NCBI GenBank assembly: GCA_008632985.1
Contig: QPGO01000016.1
Span: 468,840-532,839, forward strand
Direction: 5' to 3'
From: Psammoneis japonica
Lineage: Eukaryota
DNA: 64,000 nt
This document shows positions 6,205-61,442 of this stretch, piece by piece. The first letter of the stretch is position 1; each line of letters opens with the position of its first letter. The position numbers and the translations under genes were made by a program. The notes under the pieces were generated by a model that saw nothing but the letters and a program-made list of their open reading frames with translations, was not told where the DNA came from and searched no databases.

Positions 6205-6514
6205 TAGAGCAACGACATGATCGTTTGTTGTCATGCTGCTGCAGCAGCGCCGCTGCTTCCATTATTTTGTGATTTGCTTTCGCTGCGCTGTCGATGTTGC
6301 CCAGTTGGGCCACCGTGAGAATCCGCGGGTGATGATCGATGATTGTTTTCACGAACCATTGCGGCGGTTGGATTAGTCTTTGTGGGACACACTTTGAAGC
6401 CGTTTATGGCTGCGACTGATCATTTCTATCCTTGCTATTGGACATCTCATCCCACTTTGTGCAGCTGGTTCGGCAAACTTACAGCGTGTTGAGAAGCAGA
6501 ACATACCTTATACA

Positions 6515-22924: not shown

Positions 22925-23267
22925 CCCGCCGACAGAACGACATGGCGACCATGGCGACGGACTCTTCTCAAGAACACAAATATGAGGCAATTCTCTACGA
23001 TTGTAATATTGTCAATGTGGTGGAAGGAACCATCATGCCCAACAAGTGCATTGTGATTGGCAGAAATGGAAAAATTGAGCACATTTGCGACACGGACGAA
23101 CGGGACATGTTTCTGGAACAACTCTGCCACGCACTGTGCTGGATTGCAAGAATGCATACGTCATGCCCGGTCTGATTGATTGTCATGTTCATGCCACGGC
23201 CTTTACGGCAAGTTTTGCATTGTTGGCCAAGACGGCTCCATCGAACGTGATGGCTCGCCGGCTTTGA
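22925..23267 (+). pseudogene. Truncated, frameshifted duplicate of the 5' end of the amidohydrolase gene at 25009
   Basis: Aligns to 24988-25318 at roughly 90% identity, 2-bp insertion near 23123, ends at the TpA-free block. Confidence 0.9.
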
Positions 23268-24860
23268 TCCTGGACCAAGAGCGATGAGCGGCACATGTCT
23301 CGCCATGACGGAAGCTCCAGCGCATTGCCAACAATGTGCAGCAGATGTTGCTGGCAAGCATGAGATGCCAAGAGTTGAGCTTCATCCTTGTGGCCAACCC
23401 GGGAAATGAGGGCAACCCGTCTGTGTCTCCCCCTTGCCCTGACCCCGAACCGGGCTGGAGACAGACGGGTGAGACGAAGTTGGGGTCGGGTTTTGTTTGG
23501 GGCTGGCCAAGTTCAAAATGACCAAATTTGCAGCAGGAGCCTGAGAGCCTTCTCAAAGCCCTTTTGCGTGCCTGAAGTGACCAAGGATGCCAGCGACATG
23601 ACCCTCATTTTCCTGCCATCAAGCTTCTTCCTGAGATGAAGTTCTTTTCTTGGCGTCACTCTGCACAGAAACACATGAACCCAGTTGTCTCTGTGGTCAC
23701 AAAGTTGTCAACACAACCAGGCTCTCAATTGCCCCCCCCCCCTGTCAGGAGCTTTTTTGTGCACAGTTGCTGCACTCTTTTTGCACAAAACTGGAAGCTG
23801 AGTCATCCCCATTTTCCTCAACTGATTTTTGGGGTTCTGTTGTCAATGAAATCCATCACAGGGACAGGAAAGTTGGCAGCGCACATCTCTCTCCTTGGAG
23901 CCACACAAAACAGACCTCTCTGCAGCACGCGCACCTTTCCTCATGCGCCAAGACAACAGACTCAACTTGCAAAAATGCAGGCTATCCTCACCCTGTGACT
24001 GTCAATCACCATCAACTCCAAATCATCCAAAGAAACACCTTTTTTCAGCTGTGAACTTCCTCAAAAAAGCCAGCAGCATTGCTGGCCTCTTTTTCTCTGC
24101 ATGCCCTCATTGAGGCGCTTGTCACTGTCAGATGGCAGCCATTGCAAAGGTTGAGAAGTGGGCCCACATGCGCCTTGATTTTTCCTGGCTTGCTTGGAAT
24201 CATGAGCACCCAGATGGCTGCAAATGAAATGTTTTTGGACAGCTCATCTTTCCACTTGTTGAGGTTGCTTGTGCGCACACGGCACATGGACCACACCAAG
24301 GTGGCTGTGGCGACGTGCAAGAGACGTTTTGACTGTGTGTTCCCTCCAATGTCTTCTTGAAAATGTCGTCATTGACAGCGTTCCAGTCAAGATTGGTGGC
24401 AGCAGCATGGGTTCCTTTGCTGAGGATGTCACTTTCCTTTGGCCCAGCCCAGCATCTCGCTGCCAGGCCCAGGGGTGCAGTGTGACATGCTTGTGTTGGT
24501 TTCCTTCACACCAGCCTTTGAATTGTTCAAAAGCATGAAAAAGTCCATCCACATGCACTGGGCCATCCTCAAATCGGTGGCTTCCTCTGAGTTTGACAAA
24601 ACAACCAATTGAGCCATTGACCACATTGTTCAAAGTCTTTGGTGTGGACAAACAGCAGCAAAAAGCCCAAGAACTTTGTGGGCATGTCCTTCTCCTCTCT
24701 GATGAGAATGGCAAATGTGACAATGTTCATCATTGAAAATTCAAATTTCAATCTCAGCTCCATGTCACACACACACAACGAGACACAGCCGTCCAGCGAA
24801 GCGTCCAATTTTGCGGGAAGGAACGCCTGAAAGAGGACTCAGGGGAGGGGAACAAAAACG
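23268..24860. mobile_element. Decayed unclassified insertion, TpA-depleted, between the two amidohydrolase 5' copies
   Basis: One TA found (23983) in ~1.6 kb; broken minus-strand ORFs; structured end at 23409-23490. Confidence 0.55.
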
Positions 24861-25008
24861 AATGGAATGCGGTAATGTACGACAATTATTATTAGGCGGG
24901 GGTGCTTTTATCCCCATGACGACCCCGCCCCGATCGATCGACGACGCACGACGACGACTCGCTAGACTCTGATAACACAACACACAACCCGCCGACAGAA
25001 CAGCGACC

Positions 25009-26288
25009 ATGGCGACGGACTCTTCTCAACAAGCGCACAAATATGAGGCAATTCTCTATGATTGTAATATTGTCAATGTGGCGGAAGGAAACATCATTCC
25101 CAAAAAGTGCATTGTGATTGGTGTAGATGGAAAAATTGAGCACATTTGCGACTCGGACGAAAGAGACATGTTTCTGGAACAACTGCCCCGTATTGTGATG
25201 GATTGCAAGAATGCCTACGTCATGCCCGGTCTAATTGATTGTCATGTTCATGTCACGGCCTTTACGGCAAGTTTTGCGTTATTGGCCAAGACGGCTCCGT
25301 CATACGTGACGGCTCGTGCGATTGAAACATTGAAAGAAATGTTGAATCGAGGCTTTACCACGGTTCGTGATGCCGGTGGAGCCGATCATGGATTGGCAAG
25401 AGCTGTCGAAGAAGGACTCGTGGTGGGACCGAGATTGTTGTTTTGTGGCAAAGCTTTGAGTCAGACGGGTGGTCATGGTGACATGCGACTTGCCGGAGAC
25501 GATTCTTCTGTGGAATGTTGCGGATGCATTGCGTTGGGCCGTGTGTGTGACGGCGATGCACAAGTACGAAAGGCAGCTCGTGATGAAATACGCAAGGGTG
25601 CGACTCACATCAAGGTCATGGCGGGAGGAGGAGTCAGTTCTCCCACGGATCGAATCACATCGACACAATTTTCTGTAGAGGAATTGACAGCCATTGTACA
25701 AGAAGCAACGGCGGCCAATGTGTACGTCATGGCCATGCCTATACGCCTCGTGCAATAATCAATGCAACTCGGGCGGGTGTCAAGAGTATTGAACACGGAA
25801 ACTTGTTGGACGAGGAATCGGCCGAAATCATGGCTCAACACGAAACCTATCTTGTGCCTACACTCGCAACGTATGATGTTCTTGCACAAGAAGGATTAAA
25901 AGAGGGTCTCACGCAAGACAATGTCAACAAGGTTGCCGCCGTACGAGACGCGGGGAAACGATCGATTGGTATTGCACAACAGGCCGGTATAGTCATGTGT
26001 TTTGGAACCGACTGATTGGCTGGCATGCAACGACATCAATTGAGAGGGTTTCGCCTGTTGGAGGAAGCGGGCATGTCGGCGCCAGACGTTCTTCGGACAG
26101 CCACTTGCAATGCCGCGCGATTATTGAATATGGAGGGGGAGATTGGAGCCAATGCAGAAGGAGCCAATGCAGACATTGTTGTTTTGGCCAAGAATCCACT
26201 CTTGTCGATGGAGGTATTTGATGATTGGAAGGAGAACTGTGTCGCAATACTAAAGGGCGGCCGAATACATTACTCACAAAGCGATTGA
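25009..26288 (+). CDS. Metal-dependent amidohydrolase (Xaa-Pro dipeptidase-like subgroup); 1-bp frameshift ~25735 and in-frame TGA 26013-26015
   Basis: MPGLIDCHVH, GFTTVRDAGG, LSQTGGHGD, IKVMAGGGVSSP, (AHAY), SIEHGN, GTD, ADIVVL..NPL. Confidence 0.9.
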
Positions 26289-36619: not shown

Positions 36620-37600
36620 CCCGATGCAAGCTCTGCAGCACCCTTGGAACAAGACAACCCCGCCTTTGTGAATTTCGTCAACAAGAACGAGGCCATGTGG
36701 GAAAAGCCAAGAACAGTGGATGGTGGCACTGCATTCTTTGCTCCCAATGACAAGGCATTTGCAGAGTTTGCTGGGACAGAAGAATGATGGGAACACGTGC
36801 ACAAATGCACACTGTGAGTGGCCACAAACCAAAACCCTGTTTTTCAACATTTCTTCTACACCAATTTTGTGCAAATGCAACATGCACAATCTCCTGCAGA
36901 AGTGCATGAGAAGTTTGTGTGTGGCGCACAAGCATTTGGTGATCCTCATGTGTCAAAAACAAGTGAGTGGGCACAAAATGATCAAAGCATGCACCCCCTG
37001 TCTGTGCATCCCCGAAGAATGCAAGTGCAAAAAGTTTGTGGAGGCCATGCCACTGTGCAAGAGTTCATGGAGTGCAGGCACAAGAATTTTGCAGAGAGTT
37101 CCAGAAAACCTGCTCAGGAAACTTCGCAATCTCCCCAGGAATGCAAGTGCAAGAGAAGTTTGTGAGGTGTGGACAGAAAGCCGCATGAGAAAGTGGAAGG
37201 GTCTCTGTTGGCTGAAGTTTGTGCTGGGGTGGGGGGAGCACCGTCTCTGCATTGCATTTTTGAACAACTTTGGACATCCACCACATTCTTGGCACTCCTC
37301 AAATGAGCCCCAAACCAGCCCAGTCATCCTGAAAATGACAACCTGCAGACATCCTGCACAAACTTGGCATCAAAACAAGCTCCCCATTTGCAACCTCTCT
37401 TTTGCAGACAGCAACCCCAGCAAAGCTGAGTGCTGTGCCAAGAACACCATGTCACCATCAAGCAACTAAAATGTTGAAACGTGTGGGTGATCAAATTGAA
37501 AAAATGCAGCGCAGCAATGCACCAGGGCAACATCTGTTGTGAGTGGGTCATTGTTGGTGGTGCACTTTTGTGCAACTCTTCTCTGTCCCCACCAGCTGAG
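36620..37600 (+). mobile_element. Decayed TpA/CpG-depleted block containing a broken ORF of unknown family
   Basis: Long frame interrupted only by TGA stops; almost no TA. Confidence 0.45.
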
Positions 37601-37609
37601 GAGAATGCT

Positions 37610-38397
37610 GCACTTGGCACCTTTGAAAATCTAGCACCTTTCAAAAAAAATGATCAAAAAGTCAGCACCACCTTTGTTCATTTCCACCACTTTTTAAAAA
37701 TGATCTAAAAAACCCCCAGCACCTTTCTTGAAAACACAGCACCTCCTTGCAAGTCTGCAAACGCAGTCATTTTTTCCACATGTGTTTGTTGAAAACACCT
37801 GAGTTGAGCCATGGTTTTTGGCTTTGCTGAGCAGTGCATCATTTGTGGGAAAAACACCCATGAGCACTTGCACTCGCTGTGTGAACACTGCCGAGACAAT
37901 GACACAAATGCCATTTGTTGAGTGCAGCAATGCAGGCAGTCTGGCACCTGAGTCTCTTTGCAGTTTGTCAACCATGGTTCATGAGAAAAATTCTGCAATC
38001 AGTGTTGGCAATGTTGTGCTGAAGTGTTTTTGTTGTTTCGCAATGTGGCGGAGGGGCCCCGCACTTGTTGCTCACTGCAAAATGCACGGCTCGCACCCTG
38101 AGAGGGGCCTGCTGTCTGCACAGGAAGAACGACCCACCCACTGTGAACAACAACATGACAATGGCACAAATGCTGTTCATCGAATGCAGGAGAGGTGGCC
38201 CAATGTCTAAGTTGCAACCACCTCCGCTCTGTGGGCACCACCATCAACACATTGTGCGTGGCCAGCAGCATCTTCCCTCTCATGGGCGGATCGCTCTCAG
38301 TTTTTTCTGTTGGGGTGCTGAGCACAGGCGATGGCCTCGGAATTTGTCACAATGCAGAATTGTTAAAGGTGCTGGAAATTCTAAAAGGTGCCAGTGC
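37610..38397. mobile_element. Non-autonomous DNA-transposon-like element with ~35-bp degenerate TIRs
   Basis: 37610 GCACTTGGCACCTTTGAAAATCTAGCACCTTTCAA vs reverse complement of 38363-38397 GCACTGGCACCTTTTAGAATTTCCAGCACCTTTAA; reiterated AGCACCTTT subterminal motif. Confidence 0.65.
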
Positions 38398-38723
38398 TTA
38401 AAAAGTACAAATTTGTCGATTGAGGATGACTCCTCACTAAAAATGACACAGGGGCCGGCAGACGAGCAGCGCTTAGATAGTCCGTGCGTCCGTCCATGGA
38501 CGCTCAACGGATCAACGGATCAACGGACTATTGGGCATGATACGGAGCATGATGCATGATGGCAATGAGCAAGGAATGATGATACACCTGACTCGACGGT
38601 GAAGCTTACTCGTGCCTGAAGTCCTTTATGCAGTATAAGAACACATGTCATGGATGGCCGTAAAGTGGATTTTGAATTGTTGATTGTCCAGACGTCGAAA
38701 ACAAGCGAGAGCGAGAGACCATC

Positions 38724-39746
38724 ATGGCCCCTCAAGATGCCGTACTTTACAAGGGGGAGATTGCAAGGCACTTTGTCTTTGTGCACATACCGAAATCGGG
38801 TGGATCTGCCTTTTTGGAGGAGTCATCTCGACACATGCCGGTTGGGTATTCCATAAGGGGGAACGGCGAGCGATCCATGTACAAAACCAGTGGCTCTCGG
38901 CAAGACATGGTGACGTTGTTACGAGAACCAACCCATCACGTTGTATCGCAATTCATGATGTGCAAATATTCGGAATGGGGTCGTTCTAAGACTGCTGCCT
39001 ACAGAAACTTTCCGGGACAATGGACGACAGACAATTCAACCAATAACACGAATCATTTTGCGGGCCTGGACGAGTGGGTGCAGCACTTTGTCCGACAAGA
39101 ACATGAAGCATCGAATGAAACATTGGGGGGAGACAAGGCATTTTCGTGCTACAATCCTTGGAATATGCAAACAAGACATTTTGCAGTACCCGAAAAGATG
39201 CGAAACCCATTGGCGGCAAATCGTATTCCACCAATAGACGTGGCAAAGAAAAACCTGGATGAGATTGGGTTCGTAGGAATTGCAGAACACTTTGATGCAA
39301 GCATGTGCTTGTTTGAGTTTCACACATTGGGGTACTTAACGCAGAACTGCCAGTGTCATGAGGAAACAAAACAACTCGGCCGACAAAACAATGGCGTCAA
39401 GATTGTCCATGATGTGCCGCGTTACAACGTGACAGAGAGCTTGTCCAGTGACGCGAGGCTTCTGATTCAAAAGCTGGTTCAGGTCGACAATGTCTTGTAC
39501 GAATACGCTATGGAAAGATTCAAGAATGATCTGAGACATGTAGCGGACGTGACGGGCGTGGACTTGTCATGTGGACGTTTGTCTCTCCAGGACAATGTCG
39601 TGGTGGCTGAACGCTTTCACGAGGAGTCTAATTGTGAAAGTCCGGCTTTGGTTTTCCCTCTTATTCAGTGGATTGCCACAGCAATCATGATCCTATTCAT
39701 TGGAGCCCGGTTATTCTGCAGACGAAAACTAAGGCGGCGGCGATAG
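38724..39746 (+). CDS. Sulfotransferase-family protein with C-terminal TM helix (true start uncertain)
   Basis: 5'-PSB loop FVHIPKSGGS, 3'-PB VTLLREP..HVVSQF, NMQTR, FVGIAEHFDASMCLF, D..LY. Confidence 0.88.
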   Translation: MAPQDAVLYKGEIARHFVFVHIPKSGGSAFLEESSRHMPVGYSIRGNGERSMYKTSGSRQDMVTLLREPTHHVVSQFMMCKYSEWGRSKTAAYRNFPGQWTTDNSTNNTNHFAGLDEWVQHFVRQEHEASNETLGGDKAFSCYNPWNMQTRHFAVPEKMRNPLAANRIPPIDVAKKNLDEIGFVGIAEHFDASMCLFEFHTLGYLTQNCQCHEETKQLGRQNNGVKIVHDVPRYNVTESLSSDARLLIQKLVQVDNVLYEYAMERFKNDLRHVADVTGVDLSCGRLSLQDNVVVAERFHEESNCESPALVFPLIQWIATAIMILFIGARLFCRRKLRRRR

Positions 39747-40262
39747 ATATTGTGGCTCCCGTGTAATCAATATAGGAGCATGTGATGAGAAAAGCTACGT
39801 CAATAACCAGAAATTTTGTATCTCTACCGCAAGCTACAATCGAGCCTGATGCGGCACGCGGGATGATCACTTTTCGCGGGAATAGACAGACGGCAGGTAC
39901 TCTCAACAGAATATAATGAAGGACAGAGCTGGCTAGTCTACGGTACAATTCTCGGTAGTAACAGAAGCACGGAGCATGTACTGTACGGTAAGTTCACGAT
40001 GCAAGTGCACAAATTTTCAGCACATTATCTATCTGAGTGATAGGACTTTTAGCATTCCAAAGTTCTGGTACTGGTATGCGTTTTGGTGAAAAACCTCAGC
40101 TTTCCTGTTGTAGTTTTCTTCATACCTCACGCGTCCTCGATCAAATCTGCACTTTGTCCACTTTAAGTCCTACAGTCCCTCTGCGGGCTCATGACATCCT
40201 AGATCCAAGAAAATTGCAAGTGGCTTCAAAGCAAACTTGCCCTCTAGATCATCTTCTCCCAC

Positions 40263-41258
40263 CTAAAGTGAGTTGGAGCCTGCCGTGGTATTCACCACAC
40301 TTGGAGCAACAGAACCAGGAACAACAGATGGAGCCGCAGTGGGAGAGAGACTAAAAGAAGGCGCAGCAGTGACATCTGCTGGTGATTCCGTTACGACGCC
40401 CAATGCTACACCTGCACCAAGGGCGACACACACAACCAGCGCTGCAATTCCAATGGCAATTACAATGAGAAGGAGTCGCTTTCGCTTCCCCTTTCGACTG
40501 TATCTGGACAAGCCAGATGGTGTTTTTTCTGTTCGCAGCTGCTGCACCCAATCGCCAATTTCCTGCAGGTCCTGCTCGTTCAGAAGGACCTCTAGAATCC
40601 TCTCTTTGTCCTGAGGCTTGGAAGCCTCAGCATCCACACAGCTTGTTCGCAACTGAGAAAAGTCGTCTGGGCCTGTCACATGTGTGTTGGCCGGCATTAA
40701 TCCATATTTCCGAGCATAATACAACTCACACACGCACCAGATTCTGCTGTAAAGATCCTTTACCGAGTTGCGAACTACCACAAATTTGGAAGCATCCATG
40801 AGTGCCTTGACAAATGGCGCGTCGGTGAGCGGGGCATTCTTCTGTCCCACCTGTGTTTCAACTGTTTCTTCGTCGCCTTGAAGCAGTGCGAATGCACAAA
40901 TCCACAGGTTTGGTTTTTGCATTGTTGTTTCAAACACCTCCCCGATCGACTTTGCAAATTCTCGAAATGGCTCGTCCCAACAGTGGGTGATGAATGCATC
41001 CACCATGAGTCCATTCTTGTTGAGGTGCAGAGCATAAGGTCTTTTTGTTTCTTGGCAGACAGGCACAATAACGTGTTTCGTGATGTCATGCATTGTCATT
41101 TGCGCGTATTTCTTGCCAAATTTTTTGGACGCATCGTCATTAAAGTCCATGAACTGCTCGAACGAAATCGAACACATGCTTGGACTAATCGAACACATGC
41201 TTGGACTCATCTCCTCATCAGGAGTGTCGTTGCGCAAAAATTTTCCTTCTGTTGTCAT
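40263..41258 (-). CDS. HET-like domain membrane protein, C-terminus apparently truncated
   Basis: FITHCWDEPF, LWICAFALLQ, YSRIWCVCELYYA, AEASKPQDKERIL; then basic stop-transfer, TM helix and TAAPS stalk. Confidence 0.7.
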   Translation of the reverse strand: MTTEGKFLRNDTPDEEMSPSMCSISPSMCSISFEQFMDFNDDASKKFGKKYAQMTMHDITKHVIVPVCQETKRPYALHLNKNGLMVDAFITHCWDEPFREFAKSIGEVFETTMQKPNLWICAFALLQGDEETVETQVGQKNAPLTDAPFVKALMDASKFVVVRNSVKDLYSRIWCVCELYYARKYGLMPANTHVTGPDDFSQLRTSCVDAEASKPQDKERILEVLLNEQDLQEIGDWVQQLRTEKTPSGLSRYSRKGKRKRLLLIVIAIGIAALVVCVALGAGVALGVVTESPADVTAAPSFSLSPTAAPSVVPGSVAPSVVNTTAGSNSL

Positions 41259-41779
41259 CTCTCTTTGCAATGCCTACGAGAGAGCCTGTTCTGTGCAAAT
41301 GCGGTCACTTGCAACGACGCCATTGGCTACGATTTGTTAACACTGTCGATTAGCGTTCTCAAATAATAGACTTCGCATCCCTTTCCCGTAGGTTATGAGC
41401 CTAAGAGTCACTCTTGGGTTTGTTGACCAATGTTCCAGTTTTTGACTGCATCAAAGAGACCGCCATTGTGGTGGAATTGAGAAGAGTCTGACTGTTGGAT
41501 CAATGGCATCTGGCCATCCTCATCCTGCAATGGTGTGACAATGGGACATGACAGAGAACACCAACAAACCACAATGAGTGTTCTCTCACATTTGCGCTTG
41601 GCTCGGTTTCCTCAAAAAACAACGAGATGATTCTCAAATCTTCTCACTTGTTTCAGGCACTGAGCTCCAGTGAGTTGGTGGTTGCAATGGTCTCATCTTC
41701 AACATGGTCCTCCATGCCTCATGCAGCCTCAGCATGCATTTTGGCACAGGTTGCAACACACTCCTGCAAGGCCAGTCTC

Positions 41780-44700
41780 CAGCCGGCTTGCCAGGCCCGC
41801 TTTCACAGCAGCTTTTTGAATGAGCTGTTTGTGCCGCTCAAAAGTTTGATGCAAAGGCACTTGACATTGATGTGGCAGATGCATCAACTGCTCAACACTC
41901 TCTCACTTGCTTCACTCCAGTGACACTCCACTCCGACTGTCCTCTGGCAGGCTGCATTTTTTGTCCTTGATTCCTCACACCACTGCACTGACAGAAAATT
42001 CAAAGCCCAGACAACCAGCAGCATGCTGTCATCTGACCAAGTTAGTTTGGCCTTGGTTGAGCTCTCAATGCTGGCTGAGCTTCTGCTTGGGGCAGAGAGT
42101 GAACACACACCAGCCCCTTGCCCAGAGATGCACAGACAATCCCACATGGGGTGCTTTTTTCTGTGCAATCCCTTCAAACTGTGAAGAATGCATCAGCCTG
42201 CCATTGGGCAGCTGCATGATCATCTTTGTCCACTTTAGAGTGATCATCAGATCTTGGCTGTCACACAGACACCAGATGCAGTGTGTGGGCAATGCAATCC
42301 TTTTTGTGACAAATTTGACTTTGCCATCTTCTGAGAAGTCTGTGGTCATCCTCCTGAGGCAATTGTGGACCTTTTTTCAACAATGGATGGCAACAAGAGT
42401 TTTGTTCCTGTGTGTGTCATTGTTCATCCCAGCAATGTTTTCCAAGACTTCCTGTTCTGGGTGTGTGAGAAAGCTTTGGGTCATCCACATGATGCCACAT
42501 GATGGTGCATGTCAGCTGCCAGAGTCATGGTTTTGTTCCCCATGCAGCAGCTGCAGGGGTTCACCTTGAATCCCATGTTGTTGCAGAGGAATGAAGACAG
42601 GTTCTTCCAGAGCAGCTGGGCTCCTTGCAGAGCTTCTCAGAGCCCCTTCAATCTGTGCACAGTGTGGGGACATTGGCGCACACTTGCAACTCTTCTTTGG
42701 GTGCACTCTGCAGAGCAATTTGGCCATCTCACCTTCTGATCACATGTGTGGGCCAGCTCATCCATGTCTGATTGCATGAACACTCCAGAGGAATGTTGAC
42801 CACCATGACCTTTCTTCCCTCTTGTGTGTTGACCACTGAGTCTCATGGCAGGTGTCAATGTCTCTTTCTTGGTCTTGTGCTGGCACTGTTGTCTTGTTCC
42901 AGCCATCAGCATGCCCTCAACCCCTTTGGCAATGCACCATGCTTCTGCTTGAGGCACACAAGGCACAACACAGGGTGTTTTCTGTCACTTTGTGATGCCC
43001 TCAGTGAACATGGGCTGCACATGTCTGTGGTTGAACTGCTTTGTTTCCTTTGCAACTGCATCAGCTTCAGCCCTCCAAAGAGTGTCTTGAGGCCTTCAGT
43101 GCAGACAACTGCTCTTTGAGGAATGCTGCAGTGCTCCCATTTGGATCTTTGAAGTGCTGAGCTGCTGTCTGCCCAGCTCTCTCTGTCACATCTGTGACTG
43201 CAACATCTTTCCTTTTAATCTTGGAGGTTGCAGACATGACCTCCTCATTGCTTGTGGTTCACATGCTTGGCCAGGTTCAGGCTCTTCTTGTTGTGCTCAT
43301 CACACCACCGCTGGAACCCAAGAAGTCAGAGTCATGTGTTTTGCTTGTTGGTCCAGTGTGGGGAACCATCATCTCACCCAATTCATTGTCTGATGCACCA
43401 TTGCAATCAGCAGATGGTTGTCTGGGAAAAATGGTTGTCTGGGAAAAATGTTTGGCATGTCATCTCCTTGGTCAGGTGAATCATCAAATTCTTTGTCTTG
43501 CTGGTCTCTGTCATCTGAGCCACTGTCTGAGACTGGTTGGCCAAATTTTTAGTTGGGGGCTCTGTGCTTGCAATGTCAGATGTGTCCCAGGTTTTATGGC
43601 CACTCCTGCACTGGCACCATTTGCTTCCACAGTGGTGCCTCATCTCACTCTTTTGTTTCAGGTGCACATTCTTGGACAGCTGGCATTGTCAACAATGGGC
43701 TGTGACTGTCATCATCATTGCCAGAATCCTGACATTGGGGGGTCACAATTGCCAGCATTGTTGTCAGTCTCACACCCAGCAACACTGCAGCACTGTGGCA
43801 GAGGCATCACAAGGAGCTGAGTTTTGTGTTCAGAGTCATGGTCATTGTTCACATGGCCAGGGTGTCAGGTGGCTTGTGGCCACAGCAGTTGGCAAAGGCA
43901 AGGTTCATGGCATTTTTTGCTTGGCTCTGTTTTTTTTAACCTTTCAGATGATGTGAACAGGCACAGGCACATCTGTCCAGTGACTGTGCCTGGTGCACTT
44001 CCCTGTGGCAAAAGGGACAGCACAAAGTGGTGCTGGCATTTTGTTTGCATTCCCGGTGGGGCTGAGGCATGCAGCTCCCATGGTGTGGGGGTGCATGTTG
44101 CTGTTTCACATGCCTCACAATGCACTTGAGCACAGCTGCCAAGTTCAAGGCAGAAATGCTTTTTTCAGTCAGCACATTGGCCTGTGAGAATGTGATGTGG
44201 CAAAAGGTCACCAGCAGCAATGTCAACATGTGTGTGGGAGGGCATTGTGCCAGGCCAGAAGACCATCGCATTGAAAACAAGCCACACAATGACCAGCCAT
44301 GGTTCTGTGCAGAAGGGGAAAAGTTGTGCATGCTTTCCACCTGATCTTTGACTGTGCGCATGTGTTGCTCAATGTCTGCAACACATGTCTGTCCTTGACA
44401 CATGGGTTGAACAACATGCCTGGCACCAGCTCTTGCAGGATCTTGAGTTCAGTCAGGGTCAGCCTGGTGGTCTCCACCTGGAGCCCTTGGCACACTCATG
44501 CACAACAAGGGCAGCCTTCTGCACCACAGTGACAGCACTGGCCCATCAGCTGGTCAGGGAGGCCACTGAGCTGAAGCACAGGACCTGAAATGAGGTGACA
44601 AAGAAGATGATGTTGTGATGAATGCGACATCAATTGATGGGGTGAGCTTGCCATGTGCCTTCAGCACAGCCAACAGGATGCCATCATGAATGCTGATGAA

Positions 44701-45650
44701 AGGGATGCCACATGACAGACAGTTTTGCCCATGAGCGCTCCTGTGCCAAGTCCAAAGATGTGTTGGGCATTGGCCATGTTGTGTCGGGTGACTGGGAAAT
44801 TGGCAGTTGGCTCTTGTAAACGAGGCACTTTGCTTTTCACGGGAATGGACAGACTGCCACTGCTCTAAGACAGAATGAAGAACAGAGCTGGTTGGCCAGT
44901 CTACGGTGCAATCCTCGCAGGAACAAAAGCATGAAACATGTGCGGCAAGTTCAAGGTGCAAGTGCACAAACAAGAGGTGTCCCATTTTTGGCATGTTGGC
45001 AATCTCAGTCATGGGAATTTTGCCAGCATCTGTCATCATTTCTTGATTGCCAAGATTTCCTGTTGCATTTTTCTTTGCACCACACAGGCAACGAGACGTC
45101 CTTCATCAAATCTGCCTTTTCATTCACTCTAAGTCATAGAACCTCTGCGGGCTTGCTGAGGTTCTCAATGGCCACCAGCAGCAGAAACTTGAGATGACAT
45201 GCATTTTCTGTTGACAGAGTTACAGCATTGGCTGACAATTTGAACACGGCAACCTCAAATTCTTTCCAATTCGATTTCACTGCTGAGGACAACATGTCGA
45301 ATGACACCACAGATTTCAGCATCTGAACTTTTGACATGTCCCTCTTGCATTTCAACTGAATCTCCACAATTGGATCCTTTTTTTGTTGCGCCACTGCAAT
45401 GTCAATCAAAAGGCAGATTTTGGGAGCTGGAGCGCTTCCACATCTTCCTCCGTGGCAGCGAGAAGCGATGCTTTGGTGTCGCAGCCCGCTGTCAGCAGCT
45501 TCCCAGCAACTTCTTCCTTTTTCCTCCCTGCGCCGATTGATGAGAGAAAGTCAGAAAGAGCAGCCTCATCCCATTCATCACTCTGAATGCCGGGGACAGG
45601 CAGAGGGGCAGGCAAAGCCACAGCCATTGTTCATCCACCCGCATGATGCC
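41780..45650 (-). mobile_element. Decayed Ty1/copia (CoDi-like) LTR retrotransposon internal region: gag-like, integrase, RT, RNase H
   Basis: Minus strand remnants IDVAFI and VADIEQHMRTVKDQV (integrase), GFKVNPC..C..NKT and HVDDPKLSH (RT), WQADAFFTV, KQKL..SSTKAKL..DDSM, HINVKC (RNase H) in copia order; LTRs not identified. Confidence 0.88.
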
Positions 45651-45804
45651 AAAAACCAAAATGAAAATCGCTCTTCACTCTGCCTGCTCTTCACGCACAC
45701 GCGTCCACGCATCTGTCCATTGCATTGGAAGACTCCAGATTTCTTTGTGACCACTTTTTCTCTCGGTTTGAGACCTTTGTTGTGACTCTGTTTGATTCGT
45801 TTTA

Positions 45805-46165
45805 GAAAAAAAGGTTGTGACAACCTTTGGAACAATTGAAAAGGTTGTGTGACACAACAGCCATTTTTGACTTGGCTGAAAAGGCCTCGAGAGACAACCT
45901 TTTTGACCCTTGCTTGAGGAAAGAAAGACACTCCTGCTGCAACAGTGTGTTGTGGTAAAGTTTTTGACCCATCTGAAAAGGTTGTGTGACAACCTTTTTT
46001 GAATCACTTGAAAAAAGGTTCCAACAAGAGAACTTTTTTGAGTGTTTTTGAGTTTGTTGTGGCAACCTTTTTGACCTTGCGATGCAACCTCCTCTTTTGA
46101 CTCTTGCTTGAAAAGGCTGCAGCAACTTTTTCAACTCACTTGAAAAGGTTGCAACAGCCTCTTTG
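45805..46165. repeat. Cluster of short inverted motifs AAAAGGTTG / CAACCTTTT
   Basis: Repeated hairpin-like units e.g. 45808 AAAAAAGGTTGTGACAACCTTT, 45975 GAAAAGGTTGTGTGACAACCTTTTTT, 46141 TGAAAAGGTTGCAAC. Confidence 0.75.
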
Positions 46166-46262
46166 CAGGAGACATGGAGCACAAGGCTTTTTTGATTTTC
46201 TTGGCAAAGAGGAGGGTGTGCAACAGCTTTTGCTCATCCCAAGGCAATTGCAGACCTTTCCT

Positions 46263-47300
46263 CAATGAATGGCAACAGGAGTTTTGTTCCCAGCATGCTT
46301 GTTGTTGATCAACTCAGTGGTGCATTTGCCAAGACTTCCTGCCCCACATGTGAGATGCCTTTGGGTCTTCCACACACAGCATGATGGAGCATCAGTTGGC
46401 AGTCAAGCAAGGTTTTGTTCACCATGCACCAGCCACAGGGGCTCACCTTGAATCCCATGTCATTGCAAAGGGAACAAAAATGGGCTCTTCTTCCAGAACA
46501 GCTCTGGGCCCCTCTTGCAAAACTTTTGGAGCCCCTTTTTCAGCTGTGCACAAAGTGAGAGCTTGCCCTTTTTGCTCAGCATGCACTTGCAACTCTTTTT
46601 TGGGTGGCAATTTTTTGGCCATCTTGCCTTTTGGTTGCATGTGTGTGCCAGCTCATCCACATCTGAGAGCACGGATGCTCCCCAGAAATGTTTTGACCAT
46701 CATGACCTTTCTTGTCTCTTGTGCTGTGTTGATTGCCAAGGAGAGAAGCAATGCGTGATTGCTCATGAAGGGTGAGAATGTCCAATCCTTGGCCTCACAC
46801 AGGCACTGTGTTCTTCTGTCCACCATTGCACCCTTTTGACCCTTGGCGGTGCACCGCACTTCTGCTTGAGACACACACAAGGCACAGCACAGGGTGTTTT
46901 TCTTCTGTCACCTGGTGGCGGTGATGCCCTCAGCAAGCATGAGCCAGATCACATCCCTGTGGTCAAGCTGTTTTTTATTTCCTTCACAGCTGCATCAGCA
47001 AGGCCCTCCCAAGAATGTCTTGAGACACCTTTCCTTGCAGACATCTGCTCTGTGAGGAACAGCACACTCCAGCTTGGATCTTTGTGAAGTGCCAAGTTCC
47101 CTGCCCAGTTCTTTCTGCCATGTCTGTGGCTGTGGTCCATCTCCTTTGAATCTTGGAGTTTGCACGCATGATCGTGTTGCTTCTTGTGGCCCATGTGCTT
47201 GACCAGAGGTTTGAGCTCTTGTTGGGTTCATCACTGTGCTGGGACTCAAGCCAGAGCCATGCTCTGGGTCTGCCAGTGTGAACACAGCTCACAAGATTGC
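46263..47300 (-). mobile_element. Second diverged copia RT fragment, paralogous to 42380-43370
   Basis: Colinear similarity to the first copy throughout (e.g. TCACCTTGAATCCCATGT, TTCTGCTTGAG.CACACA); CVEDPKASH motif. Confidence 0.85.
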
Positions 47301-48721
47301 CAGCAATGCAGCATTTGCTGGCAAACAAAAAATTGTTGCTGGCATGCATCGGCTGTCTTGGGTTGTTGTCACTTGTTCCCTCCATTTCTGGCATTTTACC
47401 TGCAACATGCACCACCAGCAAATTCATTCCCCACTTGCCAGTGTGATGATTTTCTCCTGTTCCCCTCTGCTGGCAATGTGCCACTCATCTGGATCACCAC
47501 CTTCCTGTTGCCCCCTGCAACAAGTTTGTGACCTGCTTCCTCATTTCCCCCTTGCCTGCAATGCCCACTCATGATGCTTTTTGGCCTTTCTGCCAAAATG
47601 CTCACAATTCATGAAATCAATGTTTCTTCTACATTGTCATTCCAAAATGCAGACATGGGCACATGGCTCAAGTTGAACATGGGATTGTTTGCAACAGCAG
47701 CAACCATTTAACACCAAATGCAAGAATCACCTGGAGAACATGTCAAAACCTTGTTGTGATCACAAGAGGCATGGGTCCTGAAGCAAGGCATCTTCATTCA
47801 ATGCCTCCAATCATCATCCAAACTTTTCACTCAATTTCTTTCTTTCTTCTGCATCCAACACAACAGCAAATGTTTTGAAGGTCTCAAGCAGAACAAGTTG
47901 TGCTGGTGCCCATCATGTCTTGGATGACACATTTGACAAAGATGAGGTGGAAAGGCACAAGCTCTTTCTTTGGCAGTGTTTTCTGTGTCAAAAACAAAAA
48001 GCAAGCATGGCAATCCTTGTTTGTCAAAATCATTTGTGACAACTCAATGTCTGCGTCAAACCATCCAAAAGTTTCAATCAATCATGGCTCAAACACCACC
48101 CTCTGTGACTAAATGAGACAATCCTGTGGGCAGTCTTCAAGTGTCAAAAATTTGTTTGAGTTCCTGAGGAGCCACAAGCAGTTGGACCTTGGATCCTGTG
48201 AACATGCCAGCTCTGACCAAATTGACATGGAGCATGGCTTAAATGGTTCATTCCATGTTTCTAAGATTGGGGTCAAACTGTAGAAAATGCCACCAGTGAC
48301 AGGCAAATGATGACAGCTGGCCAGAACCCTTCTGTCTGACACCCATTTTCATCATTTTGCATGCGCAGAATGATGCACAGGAGATGTCTGACACATGAAA
48401 GGACATTGAACATGAGCCACAGCAAGAGTCAGCAAAGACAATTGGCAACATTGAAGCCTGAAAGCAGGGCTGAACCGGAGCTTGGTGTGCACCGGCAGCT
48501 CTCTCTGCACAAGCCTCTCCAAGTGCTAGAAATCATTGCTGCAACAATGAGAGCAGATTTGTCAATGAGCTGGTGTAGACCAGTGCTGTCAAAGGCCAAT
48601 TGTGACTGGGAGCCACATGCCATGACCTCAAGGAGATGCAACATGCCACAACAGATTGAACCAGCAAACTCAAGTGTGCTGAGAAAACACTCACATCAAT
48701 GTCCATTCTCTGCTGGGCATG

Positions 48722-50980
48722 CAGTGGACCCCAGGTGACACTTTTTCAGAGCTGCAGTCAAGAGTTGCAAGTCCACCCTGGCTAAGCTGTGGCATCATGT
48801 TGTTTTACACAAAGCCAAAGTTGAGACTTGAAAACTCAACTCTGCAGTGGAAGGACACCATGAATGCTCCTGACAACCCAACAACTGCAGTTTCAAGGCA
48901 CTGAGGGTCTTTGGTGGACCCCAGGTGACACTTTAAGAGACATGGTTGAGAGTTGAGAGGCCACCCTGGCTCAGCTCTGGCCTCATGTCACTTAAAAAAA
49001 AGCCACAAGAGGCGAGACTTGAAACCCCAAGTCCACAGTGAAGGGACACCATGAACGCTCCTGCCAACCCAACAACTGCAGTCACAAGGCATTGAGGGTC
49101 TTCAGTGGACCCCAGGCAACACTTTTAAGAACTGTGGTTGAGAGTTGCAAAGCCACCCTAGATGGGTTGTCACCCCATCTCACTTCACACAAAACCAAGG
49201 GTGAGACTTGAAACCACACCTCCGCAGAGTGAAGGGACATCATGAGTGCACCTGACAACCCAACAACTGCTGTCCAAAGGCATTGAGGGTCTTCAACAGA
49301 CCCCTGGCAATGCTTTTAGAACAATGGTCAAGAGTTGCAAGGCCAGCCTGGCTCAGTGTTGCCCCATGTCACTCTACACAAAACCATGGGTGAGACTTGA
49401 AATCCCAACTCTGCAGTGAAGGGACACCATGAGTGCACCTGACAACCCAACAACTGCAGTTTAAAGGCACTGAGTGTCTTTGGCAGACCCCAGGTGACAC
49501 TGTTGGAGCACAGTCAAGAGCTAAAAGGCCAGACTGGCTCAGCTGTTGCCCCATGTCACTTCACACAAAATCAAGGGTGAGACTTGAAGTCTCAACTGTG
49601 CAGTGAAGGGACACCATGGGTGCACCCAACAACCCAACAGCTGCAGTCCAAAGGCATTGAGTGTCTTCATCAGACCCCTGGTGACATGTTTTGAGCCATG
49701 GTCAAGATTTGCAAGGCCAGCCTGGCTCAGCTGTTGCCCCATGTCACTTCACACAAAACCAAGGGTGAGACTTGAAATCCCAACTCTGCAGTGAAGGGAC
49801 ACCATGAAGAGTGCATCTGACAACCCAACAACTGCAGTCCAAAGGCATTGAGTGTCTTCCGCAGACCCCCAGCAACATTTTTAGAGCCATGGTCAAGACT
49901 TGCAAGGCCAGCCTGGCTCAGCTGTTGCCCCATGTCACTTCACACAAAACCAAGGGTGAGACTTGAAAGCCCAACTCTGCAGTGTGAAGGGACACCATGA
50001 AGAGCGCATCTGACAACCCAACAACTGCAGTCCAAAGGCATTGAGTGTCTTCAGCAGACCCCTGGCAACACGTTTAGAGCCATGGTCAAGAGTTGCAAGG
50101 CCAGCCTGGCTCAGCTGTTGCCCTGTGTCACTTCACACAAAACCAAGGGTGAGACTTGAAACCCCAACTCTGCAGTGAAGGCACACCATGAATGCACCTG
50201 ACAACCCAACAACTGCAGTCCAAAGGCATTGACATTGAGAGTCTTTGGCAGACCCCAGACAACACTTTAAGATCTGTGGTCAAGATTTGCAAGGCCACCC
50301 TGGCTCAGCTGTGGCCTCATGTCTCTTTCACACCATGCCAAGGACAAGGAGACCTGAAATCCGCCCAAGTCCACAGTGTGAGGACACCATCATGAGTGCA
50401 CCTGCCAACCCAACAACTGCAGTCTAAAAGCATTGAGGGTCTTTGGTCAACCCCAGGTGACATTTTGAGAGCCATTGTCAAGAGTTGCAAGGCCACCGTG
50501 GCTCAGCTGTTGCCCCATGTTACTTCACAAAAAGCCAAGGGTGAGACTTGAACCCCAGTCATTTTGCAGTGATGGGACGCCATTGGTGCACATGCCATCT
50601 CAACAACTGCAGTCCAAAGGCAGTGTTGAGAGTCTTTGGGGAAACCCATTTGACACTTTTAGAGCCATGGTGATGATTTGCAAAGCAACCCCGGCTGAGC
50701 TGTGGCCTCATGTCACTTCACACAAAGCCAAGGGTGAGACTTGAACCCCAATCATTTCACAGTGAAGGGACACCATGAGTGCACCACCAACATGACAACT
50801 GCAGTTGAAGAGCATTGAGTGTCTTTGGTGGATCCCAGGTGACACCTTAAGAGCTGTGGGCAAGATCCACAAGGCTGCCCTGGCTCAGCTGTGGCCTCCT
50901 GTCAGTTCCTCCCACACAGAGAGCCAAGGGTGAGACTTGTTGAGCCCCAATTCTGCAGTGAAGCAACACCATGAATGCAC
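48722..50980. repeat. Tandem satellite, ~12 diverged units of ~187-198 bp
   Basis: Anchor GACCCC recurs at 48727, 48917, 49108, 49299, 49486, 49673, 49864, 50057, 50251 and degenerately ~50449, ~50642, ~50831; shared CCAAGGGTGAGACTTGAAA and CAACCCAACAACTGCAGT blocks. Confidence 0.95.
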
Positions 50981-51204
50981 GCACCTTTGTTTGCTCTGGC
51001 ATTTGAAAAATCAAGCAAGACAGTGTCTGCTGCCAACTTGCAGTGGTTGGAGACTGTGCGCAATGGGGCCACTGCACCACAAGATCAAACTTCCTTGCAA
51101 TGCTCAGCCACAATTCTCCAAGTCTTGCTTGGGGCCCTCCAGACAAGAAGTCTGCTCCTCCTGTCTGGACAAGGCAATGCACACAACACCACAGCATCAA
51201 ACTT

Positions 51205-51780
51205 GAAGTGCTGCTCAATCACAGCTCTTAAAGTCTCTCCTGGGGTCCACCAGAGACATTCAATGCCCCCCTCAGCTTTTGCTGCTGTCAGGTCTTCTGG
51301 CATCATCAGCGGGGATCTCTGCACTCTGGAGCTGGGAAAGTCATGCCCGTTGCTCCTGTTGGAGGGGACAAGGTGGCAACACCACCAGATCAATCAAGCC
51401 TGCTGCCACAGGGAACAAGAAGGTGAGAACAACAACACCTGGTCAATGTTGCAATGCCCAGCGACATCTCTCAAAGTGTCGCCTGATGTTTGTCAGATGC
51501 TGCCAGTGTCCTCAGCTTGCAACTGGTGTTCAGTTGGTTGGCACTGTCATTTTGCCCTTTCACTGTGGAGTTGGAATGCTCCAGCCTGCTCTCCTCCTCC
51601 TGCTGGGACAATGTGACATGGGACCACAACCACATGACAGGCGTCTTGCACTGCTCAGCCATGGTTGTTGCTGTGTCACCTGGGATCCACATGATGCCAC
51701 CAATGCCCTCAGCTTTCTGTTGTCACATTGGTTGGTGCCATCACAGGCTCCTTTCATTCTGGAGTTGGGAGTTTAAAGTT
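51205..51780. repeat. Inverted, more diverged copies (~3) of the satellite unit
   Basis: 51220 CACAGCTCTTAAAGTCTCTCCTGGGGTCCACCAGAGACATTCAATGC is the reverse complement of the unit core; further copies near 51465 and 51670. Confidence 0.75.
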
Positions 51781-51799
51781 TGAAGTGCTGTGCTTGTGA

Positions 51800-54140
51800 C
51801 TGAGGCAGAGGGTGCAAGAAGACAGGCAGCACCAGAGCTGCACAAAACACCAGCCTTGTTGCTGATGAGCATGCAGCAGCCACAAATGTTCTTGTTGTGC
51901 ACATGTGGAATGGCTGCAAAGATCTGCTGCCACAATGGCAGTCCACAAGACAACAAAAAAAACACAAACATGAAAATTTCATTCTTGACAAGAGCTGGCA
52001 GAGATCACAAAAACTGAGAGACATCAACAATCTTCATCAAAAACAAACATGCCACATCACATTGAAACAATGCTCAATGGCCAGCTCTGCCAAACTCACA
52101 AGCAAAGTGCTGCATCAGAAATGATGAACAAAATGACTTATTTTCAAGTTGATTCAAATGATTTGAAACTTTGAAAATGGACACAACAAAAGCATTTTTT
52201 TACAAAATTGTCGCTTGCAAAATGATGCAGGACTGTGGCAAAAAAGCAAATCTGCACCACTCAAAACAAAACACTCAAGTGCTTTTGTCTCTCTCTCTCT
52301 GCACTCATGCTGGATTTCTGCTCCAGACAGTGGCATGACAATGATGCATGAGGTGATGCAAACATGCAACAATGAATGAGGGTTGCATGCAACAGAGAGA
52401 ACTCTGCTGCCGGTGGCTGCATCATGGACAGGAACAGAGGCGCGCTGTGATGACATGATGTGTTGCCAAATGTGGTCCTTTGGGCTGGCTACAATGGTGG
52501 CTTGGAGCACAGAGACAATTCAATGAAAATTTCAAAATGCTGCACAATTGATGAAGAAAGCATGCATTTGAAAAACATCCAAGAAACTGTGGCAATGAAT
52601 GACAACATTTCTTTGAATGACAAATGCACAACTGCTGAGTTGAACATCACAATGTTTGCACTTGGTTGATTTTACATGAACTTGCACTGTGAGCACAGAG
52701 TGCTGAAACAGCAATGGTGTTTCAAACATTGTGTGAGAAAAATGGTCATGCACTCAAATTGCCAGCAAAGGTGACAATGAAAACAACACAAAGACAGCAA
52801 CAACATGGACAACACAAAGCAAGACAACATTGACAGGTGAGCATGACACATGCAATGTGATTGTGCATGATGTTGTCATGAACATGACAGCATGGTGTTG
52901 TTGTTCCAGAATGGCAGAAGTTTTCTCACATTCCATCATGTTTCATGCTGTCATTTTCCATGCTGTCATTTTCCATGCAGAATGATGAGCAGCTGCACAG
53001 TGCTGCATGCAGAACAACATTGTGAAGTTCGTGCCAATTGTGGAAGCACCCCCAGAACACAGGCAATCTGGAGACGGGCAATGCTCCAGGAGAAGGTGAG
53101 CACAGAGTCTGCATGGTTGGCAGCATGTGGCATGTGTGCTGATCTTTCTCATGCAACCTTGCACAGCATTTCACCATTGAAAGGATTGCAAACCAACAGC
53201 AACACGGTGTGGAGGAGATGGGCAACATGAGTGAAGTGGGAGACTGTGGGATGCTGTGATCAAGATGACTGTGGCAGCTGCTGCCAACACGATGCTGGAA
53301 GAAGCAGAAGCAGTGGATGCAGTGGACAGCAATGCTCTGATGGAAGTGACTGGGATGGACACAGCAGAGCAGGTGGAAACTGCACAAGACAATGGGTGAG
53401 AACACATGGTGGCTTCTGATTGAAATCAGCAGAGTGACAACACAAGGCAATTTACATGGCAACATTGTGACAACAGAACAATGCATGCATTCTCATCACA
53501 CTTGTCAGTTGAACACTGCCATTTGCATTGCTGGCAGGGGAGGGAACAACAGCGGATGGCAATGCGGTCATGCACTGTCACAGGTGTGGGAAGGAACAGG
53601 GTTGGCTGAGCGAGGGTGGCCGCGGATGTCAAATTGCAGGTGACCACCAGCAATGACATTGCAGGTGTGCCAGCAACAGAATGTTGGGTGAAATGACACC
53701 ACATTGCTTGTGACATCATTGTGGTTGTTGCCGGCATCAGGGGAAGCCAGGAACAAGAAAAACACCAAGAATTGGCGCTGCGCGGGCAGCATGCCAGCAC
53801 AATGGATGCGCAGGGGCAACGGGAGCCAGCAACAAGAGCTGCACCAGCAAATGGCACCAGCAGGGTGACATGCCAGGATGACAGCATTTTCACACCAGCA
53901 ACACCAAGTGCGGTTGAGCTGTGGTGCGCGGGCACCCTTGGACCCATCGCTGGCAACCAGCGGTGCCATCATTGTGGATTTTTGGTGCCAGCAAATGCCC
54001 TTTTTTGCTGGCAATCTCGTGAGCTGTGAAGTCATCATCACCCAGTTCATTGTCTGATGCACTGTTGTGATCAGCAGATGGTGGTCTGGGAACAAGGTTT
54101 GGCACATGTCATCTCTGTTATCTGAGCCACTGCCTGAGTA
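51800..54140. mobile_element. Unclassified decayed TpA/CpG-depleted repeat DNA
   Basis: Continuation of the CA/TG-rich block; no recognisable domain. Confidence 0.4.
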
Positions 54141-60102: not shown

Positions 60103-60933
60103 TCAGGCGGATGTCTCAGTGGTTTCTGGCTTGAAGCAATGTTCTGATTGTTTCTCTAGCGTGTGAGTTCGCCCGAAAGTTTTCTCCACAAAGTGGACAC
60201 GTCCGCTCTTGGTCACAACAATCACAGAGGACTGTCTTGTTCCGTAGTCAAACTCATCCGCCTTGACAAACATGGAGGAAAGCAACTTTTCCACATTGAC
60301 ACCAAGGCCAGTGTCAACAAGGAGTTCCTTCTCGTACGTCTTGTCATTCTCCAGGATTCGAAACAGTTCTTCAATCAACGTGTCTTCGTCCAGAGTACTA
60401 TTGTTGACTAATAATGATTCTAGTTGCTTCCTGGCCGTTTCCACCTTGGGCCAACCCGGTGCATCCATATAATGATTTGCCACCCCGTGAACGATCCCGG
60501 GATCAACTCGTTTGACGGCTCCATTCTCTACCCAGTTGCTTGAAAACCACAATCCATTCACCACGTCCCCTACAATCAGATTGTATCCATCAAAATGTTT
60601 TCCTTCGATAGATTCCAAATATTGTTTAGGAGTTCTTGAATCCGTCGACTTGAGCCAATCGACTGTCAATAAACCACGTGATTTCGGAGAAACAATTGAA
60701 TTTCGCAGCGGTCCATCTCTGTAGTTTGTCACTGCCGCAATTCTTCCATTCTCATCATTGATACTCAACCATGTTCCTCCTCGTACACCGTCACGACCAC
60801 CAAACACATGAGGTGCATCGTCTCCCCACGGTGCCGCTGCGAGCGTGTCGCGAGCAAAATATTCATCGCGATTGCAAATGAAAACGAGGGGAAACTCCGA
60901 ATGGACCTGCCATGCCACCATGATTACGCACAT
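60103..60933 (-). CDS. TANGO2: TANGO2 / NRDE-family protein
   Basis: MCVI start, NRDEYFAR, GGRD...GGTWL, VTNYR, SRGLL, WPKV, YGTR. Confidence 0.93.
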   Translation of the reverse strand: MCVIMVAWQVHSEFPLVFICNRDEYFARDTLAAAPWGDDAPHVFGGRDGVRGGTWLSINDENGRIAAVTNYRDGPLRNSIVSPKSRGLLTVDWLKSTDSRTPKQYLESIEGKHFDGYNLIVGDVVNGLWFSSNWVENGAVKRVDPGIVHGVANHYMDAPGWPKVETARKQLESLLVNNSTLDEDTLIEELFRILENDKTYEKELLVDTGLGVNVEKLLSSMFVKADEFDYGTRQSSVIVVTKSGRVHFVEKTFGRTHTLEKQSEHCFKPETTETSA

Positions 60934-61442
60934 GGTTGTTTTTAAGTCGATTACAGTAGAATGTAAACGTCTGTTCTCTTGAAAAAAAAAAAATAGACTA
61001 TTGAAAGAAGAAAGAGAGAAGGAATGCAAGTTCGGAGAGTGTGATGGGTTGCTTCGCATCGAAACAGTGCATCATCCAGTCGGTGCCACGACTGGCAGTC
61101 GTGAGTAATGGATTATCAAACATACGGGTTTGATAAACGGTAATGAAATTTTTGTATATAAGTATGTATGCATATTATTCAACCCAAATCGCGACCATCG
61201 CAGCCACGATCAGAATTCATTCACGAGTCATGTTAGTCACGAGTACGTGTCGTCGTTGCTGGTTCGTCGCTCACTTTGTCTCGCACCCCCACACTTTGCC
61301 ACTTGCCACGTCCATCATTTTTTCATGTTTAAGCTGCTTTACCGTTTTGCCATGTGACGCAGCGAATACATTATTCTCGTACTACAGCAGCTAGAAGTTT
61401 GTGGGTTGTGTGGAGGGTGTAAGGTACAAGTATTCCCTCATC

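Follow-up and report, generated by a model that had tools for sequence, protein, structure and literature searches.

Loss of TA dinucleotides to TG or CA after insertion in retrotransposons and other repeats of Psammoneis japonica

In this study, we describe a mutational process that removes the dinucleotide TA from retrotransposons and other repeated DNA in the genome of Psammoneis japonica, a probable diatom. The placement of the host draws on one window gene with at least 120 relatives; seven of those listed bear a taxon name, and all seven are diatoms, at about 30-34% identity. Our starting point was a pair of degenerate Ty1/copia copies in contig QPGO01000016.1; "the window" designates the whole stretch of 64,000 nucleotides that was analysed (positions 468,840 to 532,839 of the contig, forward strand), and window positions count from its first letter. 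We are close to certain that repeats of this genome undergo, once inserted, a conversion of TA into TG or CA. This direction rests on outgroups, on pairs of long terminal repeats (LTRs) and on young copies. The window features concerned are the following:

41403..54118, strand not assigned: TA- and CG-depleted repeat block holding both copia copies, with sharp edges (dense TA up to 41402 and again from 54119)
41410..44830, minus strand: copia copy 1, a degenerate polyprotein remnant (upstream/integrase region, reverse transcriptase (RT) and RNase H), 5'-truncated and with many indels
46230..47330, minus strand: copia copy 2, a degenerate RT region with a stretch upstream of RT (profile alignment 47059-46234)
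44833..44970, strand not assigned: TA-poor counterpart of a short repeat that is found with normal TA at 39870-40013 (74% identity)

Between 41410 and 54000, we counted 48 TA steps for 824 expected and 100 CG steps for 750 expected, so that this 12.7-kb block retains 6% of the expected TA and 13% of the expected CG; over 42380-46700 the counts are 12 versus 281 for TA and 40 versus 256 for CG. The GC content of the block is unchanged, at about 48%. For comparison, genic 2-kb windows have observed/expected ratios (o/e) of about 0.43-0.83 for TA and near 1 for CG. The surviving TA steps are skewed towards TAA, with 39/48 inside TAA-containing 4-mers (450/1211 in genic DNA) and 0/48 in ATAC, GTAC or ATAT (362/1211 in genic DNA), and this skew ties the window to the process seen in the younger copies described below. 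Ten aligned TA steps of the outer copy of the short repeat read, inside the block, six times CA, once TG, once TA and twice otherwise. Assembly error does not account for the pattern, since a short-read contig of run X1, possibly from the same sample, reproduces positions 38210-45530; over the 7327 bases compared, it shows 3 other letters and 6 gap positions. Five single-letter differences were checked in 43032-53356, and none lies within a TA step of the window.

The timing of the loss was established on copies drawn from the top 150 RVT_2 matches, in a genome that has at least 150, a sample that leans to the less decayed elements. Among the first 30 of these copies, TA o/e in the RT core goes from 0.78 down to 0.07 with CG o/e still at 0.76-1.0, which indicates that TA is lost first. 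The two LTRs of a retrotransposon are identical at insertion, and the TA differences between them must therefore have arisen afterwards, in chromosomal DNA. We compared 36 LTR pairs from four copia families (16, 9, 9 and 2 pairs; 10,117 aligned steps, 517 involving TA), excluding L043 (N gap), L208 (an old duplicate and not an LTR pair), L189-L197 (incomplete) and loci without a pair in range. The 308 differences comprise 98 TA/TG, 117 TA/CA, 25 TG/CA and 1 TA/CG exchanges (241 altogether), 30 differences at CG, 30 other transitions and 7 transversions. Moreover, on the 291 TA sites of 16 full-length copies found elsewhere in the genome (95-99% identical), copies whose LTRs are identical have lost only 9 and 11 sites. 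Finally, of the 204 sites at which three or more copies have lost TA, 155 have TG in some copies and CA in others, an outcome that only a TA ancestor explains.

These 16 copies also reveal the anatomy of the loss. Within the affected domains, the fractions of A changed to G (sense/antisense) are 0.54/0.52 for TAC, 0.44/0.42 for TAT, 0.27/0.27 for TAG and 0.20/0.19 for TAA. The loss is thus strand-symmetric, with context-matched fractions equal on both strands, and follows the ranking TAC>TAT>TAG>TAA; a second family and the LTR pairs both gave the order TAC>TAT>TAA/TAG. The outcomes at TA are 774 TG, 620 CA (1394 together) and 5 CG, with few transversions. A weak off-target A to G change is seen at AAC, AAT, CAC and CAT, at 10-20 per 1000 within domains and 1-5 per 1000 beyond them. 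Transversions are not raised, and A preceded by G, like the other A/T contexts, is barely changed. Same-strand runs are absent (0.515 versus a null of 0.509±0.014).

The loss forms a contiguous zone in 11 of the 16 copies, the remaining five being barely touched. Ten of these 11 zones include element positions of about 450-1350, in the first open reading frame (ORF; gag by position), and they extend over 1.4 kb to about 6 kb. TA loss amounts to 1183/1561 inside domains versus 211/3082 outside, figures that are partly circular because TA loss was itself used to set the limits of the domains. This circularity does not affect the off-target figures or those for CG, whose loss is five-fold higher inside (91/2185 versus 32/3910, p=5e-18), with the other C to T classes unchanged; CA to TA changes number 2/3161 inside and 12/5871 outside. 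None of 31 shared non-TA variants co-segregates with the hit zone, and a chimeric origin of the gradients, when tested, found no support. Concordance of outcome between copies is 0.63 versus 0.53 expected from context alone, so that some changes may be inherited; given this value, and non-TA variants that do not follow the zones, the zones are mostly independent events. TA loss does not behave as a simple clock, since no correlation with other private changes was found across the 16 copies (rho -0.19, p=0.47). Where a domain reaches the 5' LTR, the nearest 250 flank bases hold fewer TA (p=0.005, 8 versus 8 copies), which suggests spill-over into the near flank but is confounded by insertion into already stripped DNA. 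In the family of L034 and L039-L042, the leader behind the 5' LTR (about 500-1000, element orientation) is TA-rich even in heavily hit copies, with 35-40 TA per 500 bases, and the 5' LTR usually retains more TA than the 3' LTR; promoter-proximal DNA may be protected in this family.

We then placed the two window copies relative to an outgroup set of 122 copia stretches, obtained by a motif scan of metagenome contigs and belonging to the WHVDDLK.SH lineage, which we take to be CoDi-like. A profile built from 53 of the 122 (L127, L139, L172 and ORFs below 200 aa being left out) scores 166 on copy 1 and 109 on copy 2, for 24 and 27 on two shuffles. Outgroup ORFs match copy 1 by tblastn, collinearly, at 44801-44718, 44400-43908, 43059-42314 and 42144-41915, and its profile alignment spans 43059-42313. 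The integrase-RT-RNase H order and the RT similarity were both recovered for the window copies, domain names being assigned by position in the outgroup polyproteins. TA steps number 7 for 212 expected in copy 1 and 1 for 66.5 expected in copy 2, and the copies are 68% identical over 1114 aligned columns, with many indels. Judged from their sequence, both are dead, frameshifted Ty1/copia remnants of the WHVDD lineage: they align across RT with its other members, but are stripped of TA and CG. Window self-comparison found no LTR pair for these old and truncated copies, and Pfam recognised 0/15 fragments, those of the window copia included. As for relatives within the genome, DNA queries returned only the two window copies and L033, a protein fragment only itself, the strict motif nothing and a loose motif one further copy, L066; phmmer with a fragment of 79 residues yielded a single weak match, which was set aside. 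By tblastn, no genuine match to the window came from the ORFs of about the first 50 loci.

The coding motifs of the two copies illustrate the consequences at the protein level:

42558-42550, minus strand: NPYD-type motif of copy 1, CCCTGCAGC, with TGC (Cys) in the Tyr column, where 49/52 profile rows have Tyr
46440-46432, minus strand: NPYD-type motif of copy 2, CCCTGTGGC, with TGT (Cys) in the Tyr column
42491-42474, minus strand: RT catalytic motif of copy 1, HVDDPK, in which His is probably native and Pro would be derived (the search pattern itself required Leu)
46376-46359, minus strand: RT catalytic motif of copy 2, CVEDPK
41874-41857, minus strand: RNase H-end motif HINVKC, outside the 42380..46700 interval of the preliminary description; outgroups end in RY

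A preliminary description of these copies had quoted the same motif strings, and all were found on the minus strand at the named positions. It had read the NPYD-type motifs as Tyr to Cys changes, and Cys is indeed derived, as Tyr occupies this column in 84/89 outgroup ORFs; the difference between TGC-A and TGT-G fits its proposal that the following CG step was resolved as CA or TG. HINVKC likewise departs from a conserved Tyr, the motif ending in RY in 7/7 outgroup cases. Its suggestion that the catalytic motif had passed from TAT to CAT or TGT did not hold, since WHVDD is found in 109/122 relatives and WYVDD in 13 (the pattern allowed either residue); its own caveat that HVDD occurs naturally was well placed, His being probably native, and two in-genome relatives read CAT and CAA there. 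At the codon after VDD, one in-genome relative has CTG, in agreement with an original Leu. We followed the fate of conserved Tyr, as it had proposed, at anchored profile columns with a conservation of 75% or more: Tyr survives at 0/8 window sites, and other conserved residues at 68/122. Five of the eight are Cys and the other three lie near frameshifts; in two in-genome relatives, 0/12 are kept (7 Cys, 3 His). The view that TA was ancestral and converted on either strand is borne out by the outgroups, the LTR pairs and the young copies. The paralogue pair by itself, to which the direction had been attributed, does not reveal it: the three shared Tyr columns are Cys in both copies, as shared descent could explain, and the excess of CA/TG swaps (27 per 159 identical CA/TG steps versus 15 per 423 for other classes, p=2e-6) fits a TA or a CG ancestor equally, so that the pair illustrates the process without fixing its direction.

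The process is not restricted to copia elements. TA-poor elements lie between TA-normal flanks, for example at L200 and L202-L204, and host genic windows are normal. Non-retroelement repeats are stripped too: three multi-copy duplicates of the DNA cytosine-methylase family (L230, L231 and L232) have TA o/e of 0.07-0.10, and Tyr makes up 0-0.5% of their longest frames versus 2.4-3.1% in five other matches. Beyond this genome, among 121 metagenome copia loci of at least 600 bases, CG o/e is below 0.3 in 22 and TA o/e in one. This sole case, the copia fragment L139 (TA o/e 0.03, CG 0.07), indicates that TA erasure occurs in another sample as well, that it is rare in this set and that it does not follow from CG decay alone, since most CG-poor loci are not stripped.

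Several further features of the window and of related loci were noted. Four intergenic islands of the window (4602-6205, 8375-9609, 23204-24873 and 36857-38208) are TA-free or nearly so, some keeping part of their CG, and are probably further repeats at earlier stages. The first part of an amidohydrolase-family ORF is partially duplicated (88%; 22915-23257 versus 24978-25316), and the duplicate enters a TA-poor stretch; the 11 TA of the intact copy correspond to six kept, two TG, one CA and two other. In L208 (4714-8989), an old 1.3-kb direct duplicate (87%) in stripped DNA shows 20 TG/CA swaps and almost no TA. The spacer between the copia copies (44830-46230) has lost TA, retains CG to a greater extent, with 12-13 steps per 500 bases at 45001-46000, and contains a 138-codon frame (45137-45550) without Pfam match; it may be a younger insertion. 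The interval 48650-51750, which has likewise lost its TA and CG, holds a degenerate tandem repeat of about 190 bases; inverted copies lie at 51214-51732, and read depth indicates many more copies elsewhere. Finally, a TANGO2/NRDE-family gene (60106-61071, minus strand), whose best matches show 63-67% identity and whose taxon-named matches are bacterial, may have been acquired by horizontal transfer; it did not help to identify the host.

The TA signature matches the TpA hypermutation of the chlorarachniophyte Bigelowiella natans as described by Mettrop et al. (bioRxiv 10.64898/2026.01.13.699255). These authors recorded 231 changes within two integrated viral sequences of this alga, all but one AT to GC and those all at TpA, at a rate about 1000 times background in mutation-accumulation lines; the authors propose the DNA adenine deaminase ADAT2, without demonstrating it. 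Both systems share T/A to C/G transitions at TpA, on both strands and limited to foreign or repeated DNA, and both are uneven, between lines in Bigelowiella and between copies here; low-TpA coding sequences of Bigelowiella are also enriched for RT and DDE domains. They differ in that Bigelowiella is a rhizarian in which two viral inserts are concerned (one shown to be single-copy), TpA is moderately depleted (rho 0.45) and ongoing mutation was measured directly, whereas our data concern LTR retrotransposons and other repeats genome-wide in a probable diatom, with near-total exhaustion of TA, dating by LTR pairs, a 3' context ranking, spreading domains and a coupling to CG decay. The words "diatom", "LTR" and "trinucleotide" do not occur in the accessible text of that report, whose supplements may list 3' contexts, and no published account of such TA loss in diatoms was found in the open literature searched.

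What could produce this signature? The data show that, once a repeat has inserted, the A of 5'-TA is changed to G on either chromosome strand, with TAC and TAT preferred, within contiguous domains that lengthen along the element, and that the CG steps of these domains decay more slowly, to TG or CA. The window copies represent the end state, with TA and CG nearly exhausted and Tyr codons turned into Cys (His in related copies). The domains may correspond to silenced, CG-methylated chromatin, a reading suggested by the DNMT5-dependent methylation and repression of copia elements described in Phaeodactylum (PMC9998398). An adenine deaminase, of TadA/ADAT type or other, would be recruited to them and would convert dA to inosine in DNA, to be fixed as G by replication; the overall effect would resemble a genome defence of the repeat-induced point mutation (RIP) kind, with opposite polarity. 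Among the mechanisms considered, we rank such a deaminase, working on the DNA of silenced chromatin that carries CG methylation, as the best, with a probability of about 0.5. Pure transitions, the ranking by 5'-T and 3'-pyrimidine, and scattered single events suit such an enzyme. Candidate genes exist in the genome, namely three TadA-like ORFs, one of them fused to a 2OG-Fe(II) oxygenase, and two A_deamin loci. In the fusion (L060:313-1785, minus strand), the TadA-like deaminase motif is in frame with DIOX_N and 2OG-Fe(II) oxygenase domains. Position 33 of tRNA is a U. The target contexts tabulated in a review are 5'ACG for TadA/ADAT2 and 5'UAG for ADAR (PMC10661471), and an engineered TadA variant prefers YAC (PMC13109818).

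Several points weigh against the deaminase. The YAC preference belongs to an engineered variant and offers a loose analogy. The deaminase genes look like an ordinary set, without expansion (9 matches, and 5 in a second search), and remain candidates. An altered A and an altered paired T leave the same trace in sequence, CG decay serves as a proxy for methylation, and the circularity and concordance mentioned above apply to the domains themselves. A role in defence is presumed: TA loss does not create stop codons, and even strongly affected copies retain frames of about 1,900 codons, though they lose conserved residues.

Error-prone patch repair is an unlikely alternative. Here, T:G mismatches from deamination of 5-methylcytosine would be excised and the gap refilled by a Y-family polymerase (eta- or iota-like) placing G opposite T, in a manner likened to the A/T phase of antibody hypermutation. 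It would explain why TA loss and CG loss occupy the same domains, why some tandem changes stand beside TA in LTR pairs, and why AAC and AAT are the strongest secondary targets, in agreement with the error-prone activity of Pol eta at WA motifs in mismatch-triggered gap filling (PMC6423074). However, the fraction of TA steps changed (about 0.2-0.5) exceeds that of AA (at most 0.02) by a factor of some tens, and CAC is struck as often as AAC. Pol eta gives many transversions at A, and transversions are not raised. The same-strand clusters expected from gap filling were not seen in the 16 copies, TA events exceed CG events about tenfold per site in LTR pairs, and 22 of the 121 metagenome copia loci lost CG and kept TA.

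We consider it quite improbable that mutation at TA starts from a modified base, either deaminated N6-methyladenine or an oxidised thymine (5-hydroxymethyluracil or 5-formyluracil) pairing with G, with a writer marking repeats and mutation as a by-product. Such a process would parallel the methylation-driven CG decay of the same domains; a strict context and pure transitions fit a short-motif writer, and the deaminase/2OG-Fe(II) oxygenase fusion is present. Nonetheless, TA disappears about ten times faster than CG, a pace that calls for an active step over spontaneous decay. Searches for MT-A70 and Tet_JBP were blank, but as the controls were silent too they give no evidence either way.

RNA editing or reverse-transcription error during transposition, such as ADAR-like A-to-I changes on element RNA, is very improbable. 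ADARs favour 5'-UA (5'UAG, PMC10661471) and two A_deamin loci are present, but ADAR editing should be strand-biased, prefer UAG and leave identical LTRs, whereas the strands are equally struck here, TAG is a poor target, TA differences in both directions separate the two LTRs of a given insertion and non-retroelement duplicates are stripped as well. The weakest explanations (a RIP-type CA to TA change in TA-rich copies, plain CG decay, GC-biased gene conversion, selection against TA or an assembly artefact) could appeal to the CG depletion of the window, to CA/TG swaps compatible with a CG ancestor and to the absence of polarity in any single LTR pair, but are ruled out because TA-rich copies are the youngest and keep Tyr as in outgroups, many copies are TA-stripped with CG still at 0.8-1.0, G-preceded A and other A/T contexts are barely altered, conserved Tyr is destroyed, non-TA variants do not co-segregate with hit zones and the X1 contig matches the window.

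Fungal RIP, of the RID/DNMT4 type in ascomycetes, introduces dinucleotide-specific transitions on both strands of repeats and spoils transposons after insertion. It turns CA into TA and leaves AT-rich DNA full of stops. The process described here likewise acts on repeats, after insertion and on both strands, but TA is lost and not gained, no stops are made and GC stays near 48%, so that the defining chemistry of RIP fails. A simple dependence on homology also fits poorly, as copies that are almost identical show the loss along only a portion of their length and 5/16 hardly at all. RIP is named in PMC9998398, and the decay of methylated CG in DNMT5-methylated diatom transposons that the same source brings into view accounts for the CG half of our observations, in the same kind of element, but cannot remove TA. 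More speculatively, and with clear doubt, diatoms and chlorarachniophytes might share a chromatin-guided DNA adenine-editing defence ("A-RIP"), with a TAY-preferring deaminase, nucleation near the retrotransposon 5' end and spreading in cis with CG methylation over kilobases, which would erase TA from all silenced repeats and would have a deep ancestry in the SAR group (stramenopiles, alveolates and Rhizaria).

Relative to the Bigelowiella report, our results add another SAR lineage, transposon decay on a genome-wide scale and TA run to exhaustion. They have practical consequences for reading such genomes. Frames stay open as Tyr vanishes, so that dead elements resemble long genes, and TA loss conceals old repeats from homology searches. 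Moreover, LTR-based dating is broken, because 78% of LTR differences come from the TA process alone. The hunt for the enzyme becomes testable in a group with knock-out tools. A naturally occurring adenine editor that acts on chromosomal DNA would, if confirmed, add a new class to the known genome defences and be relevant to base editing.

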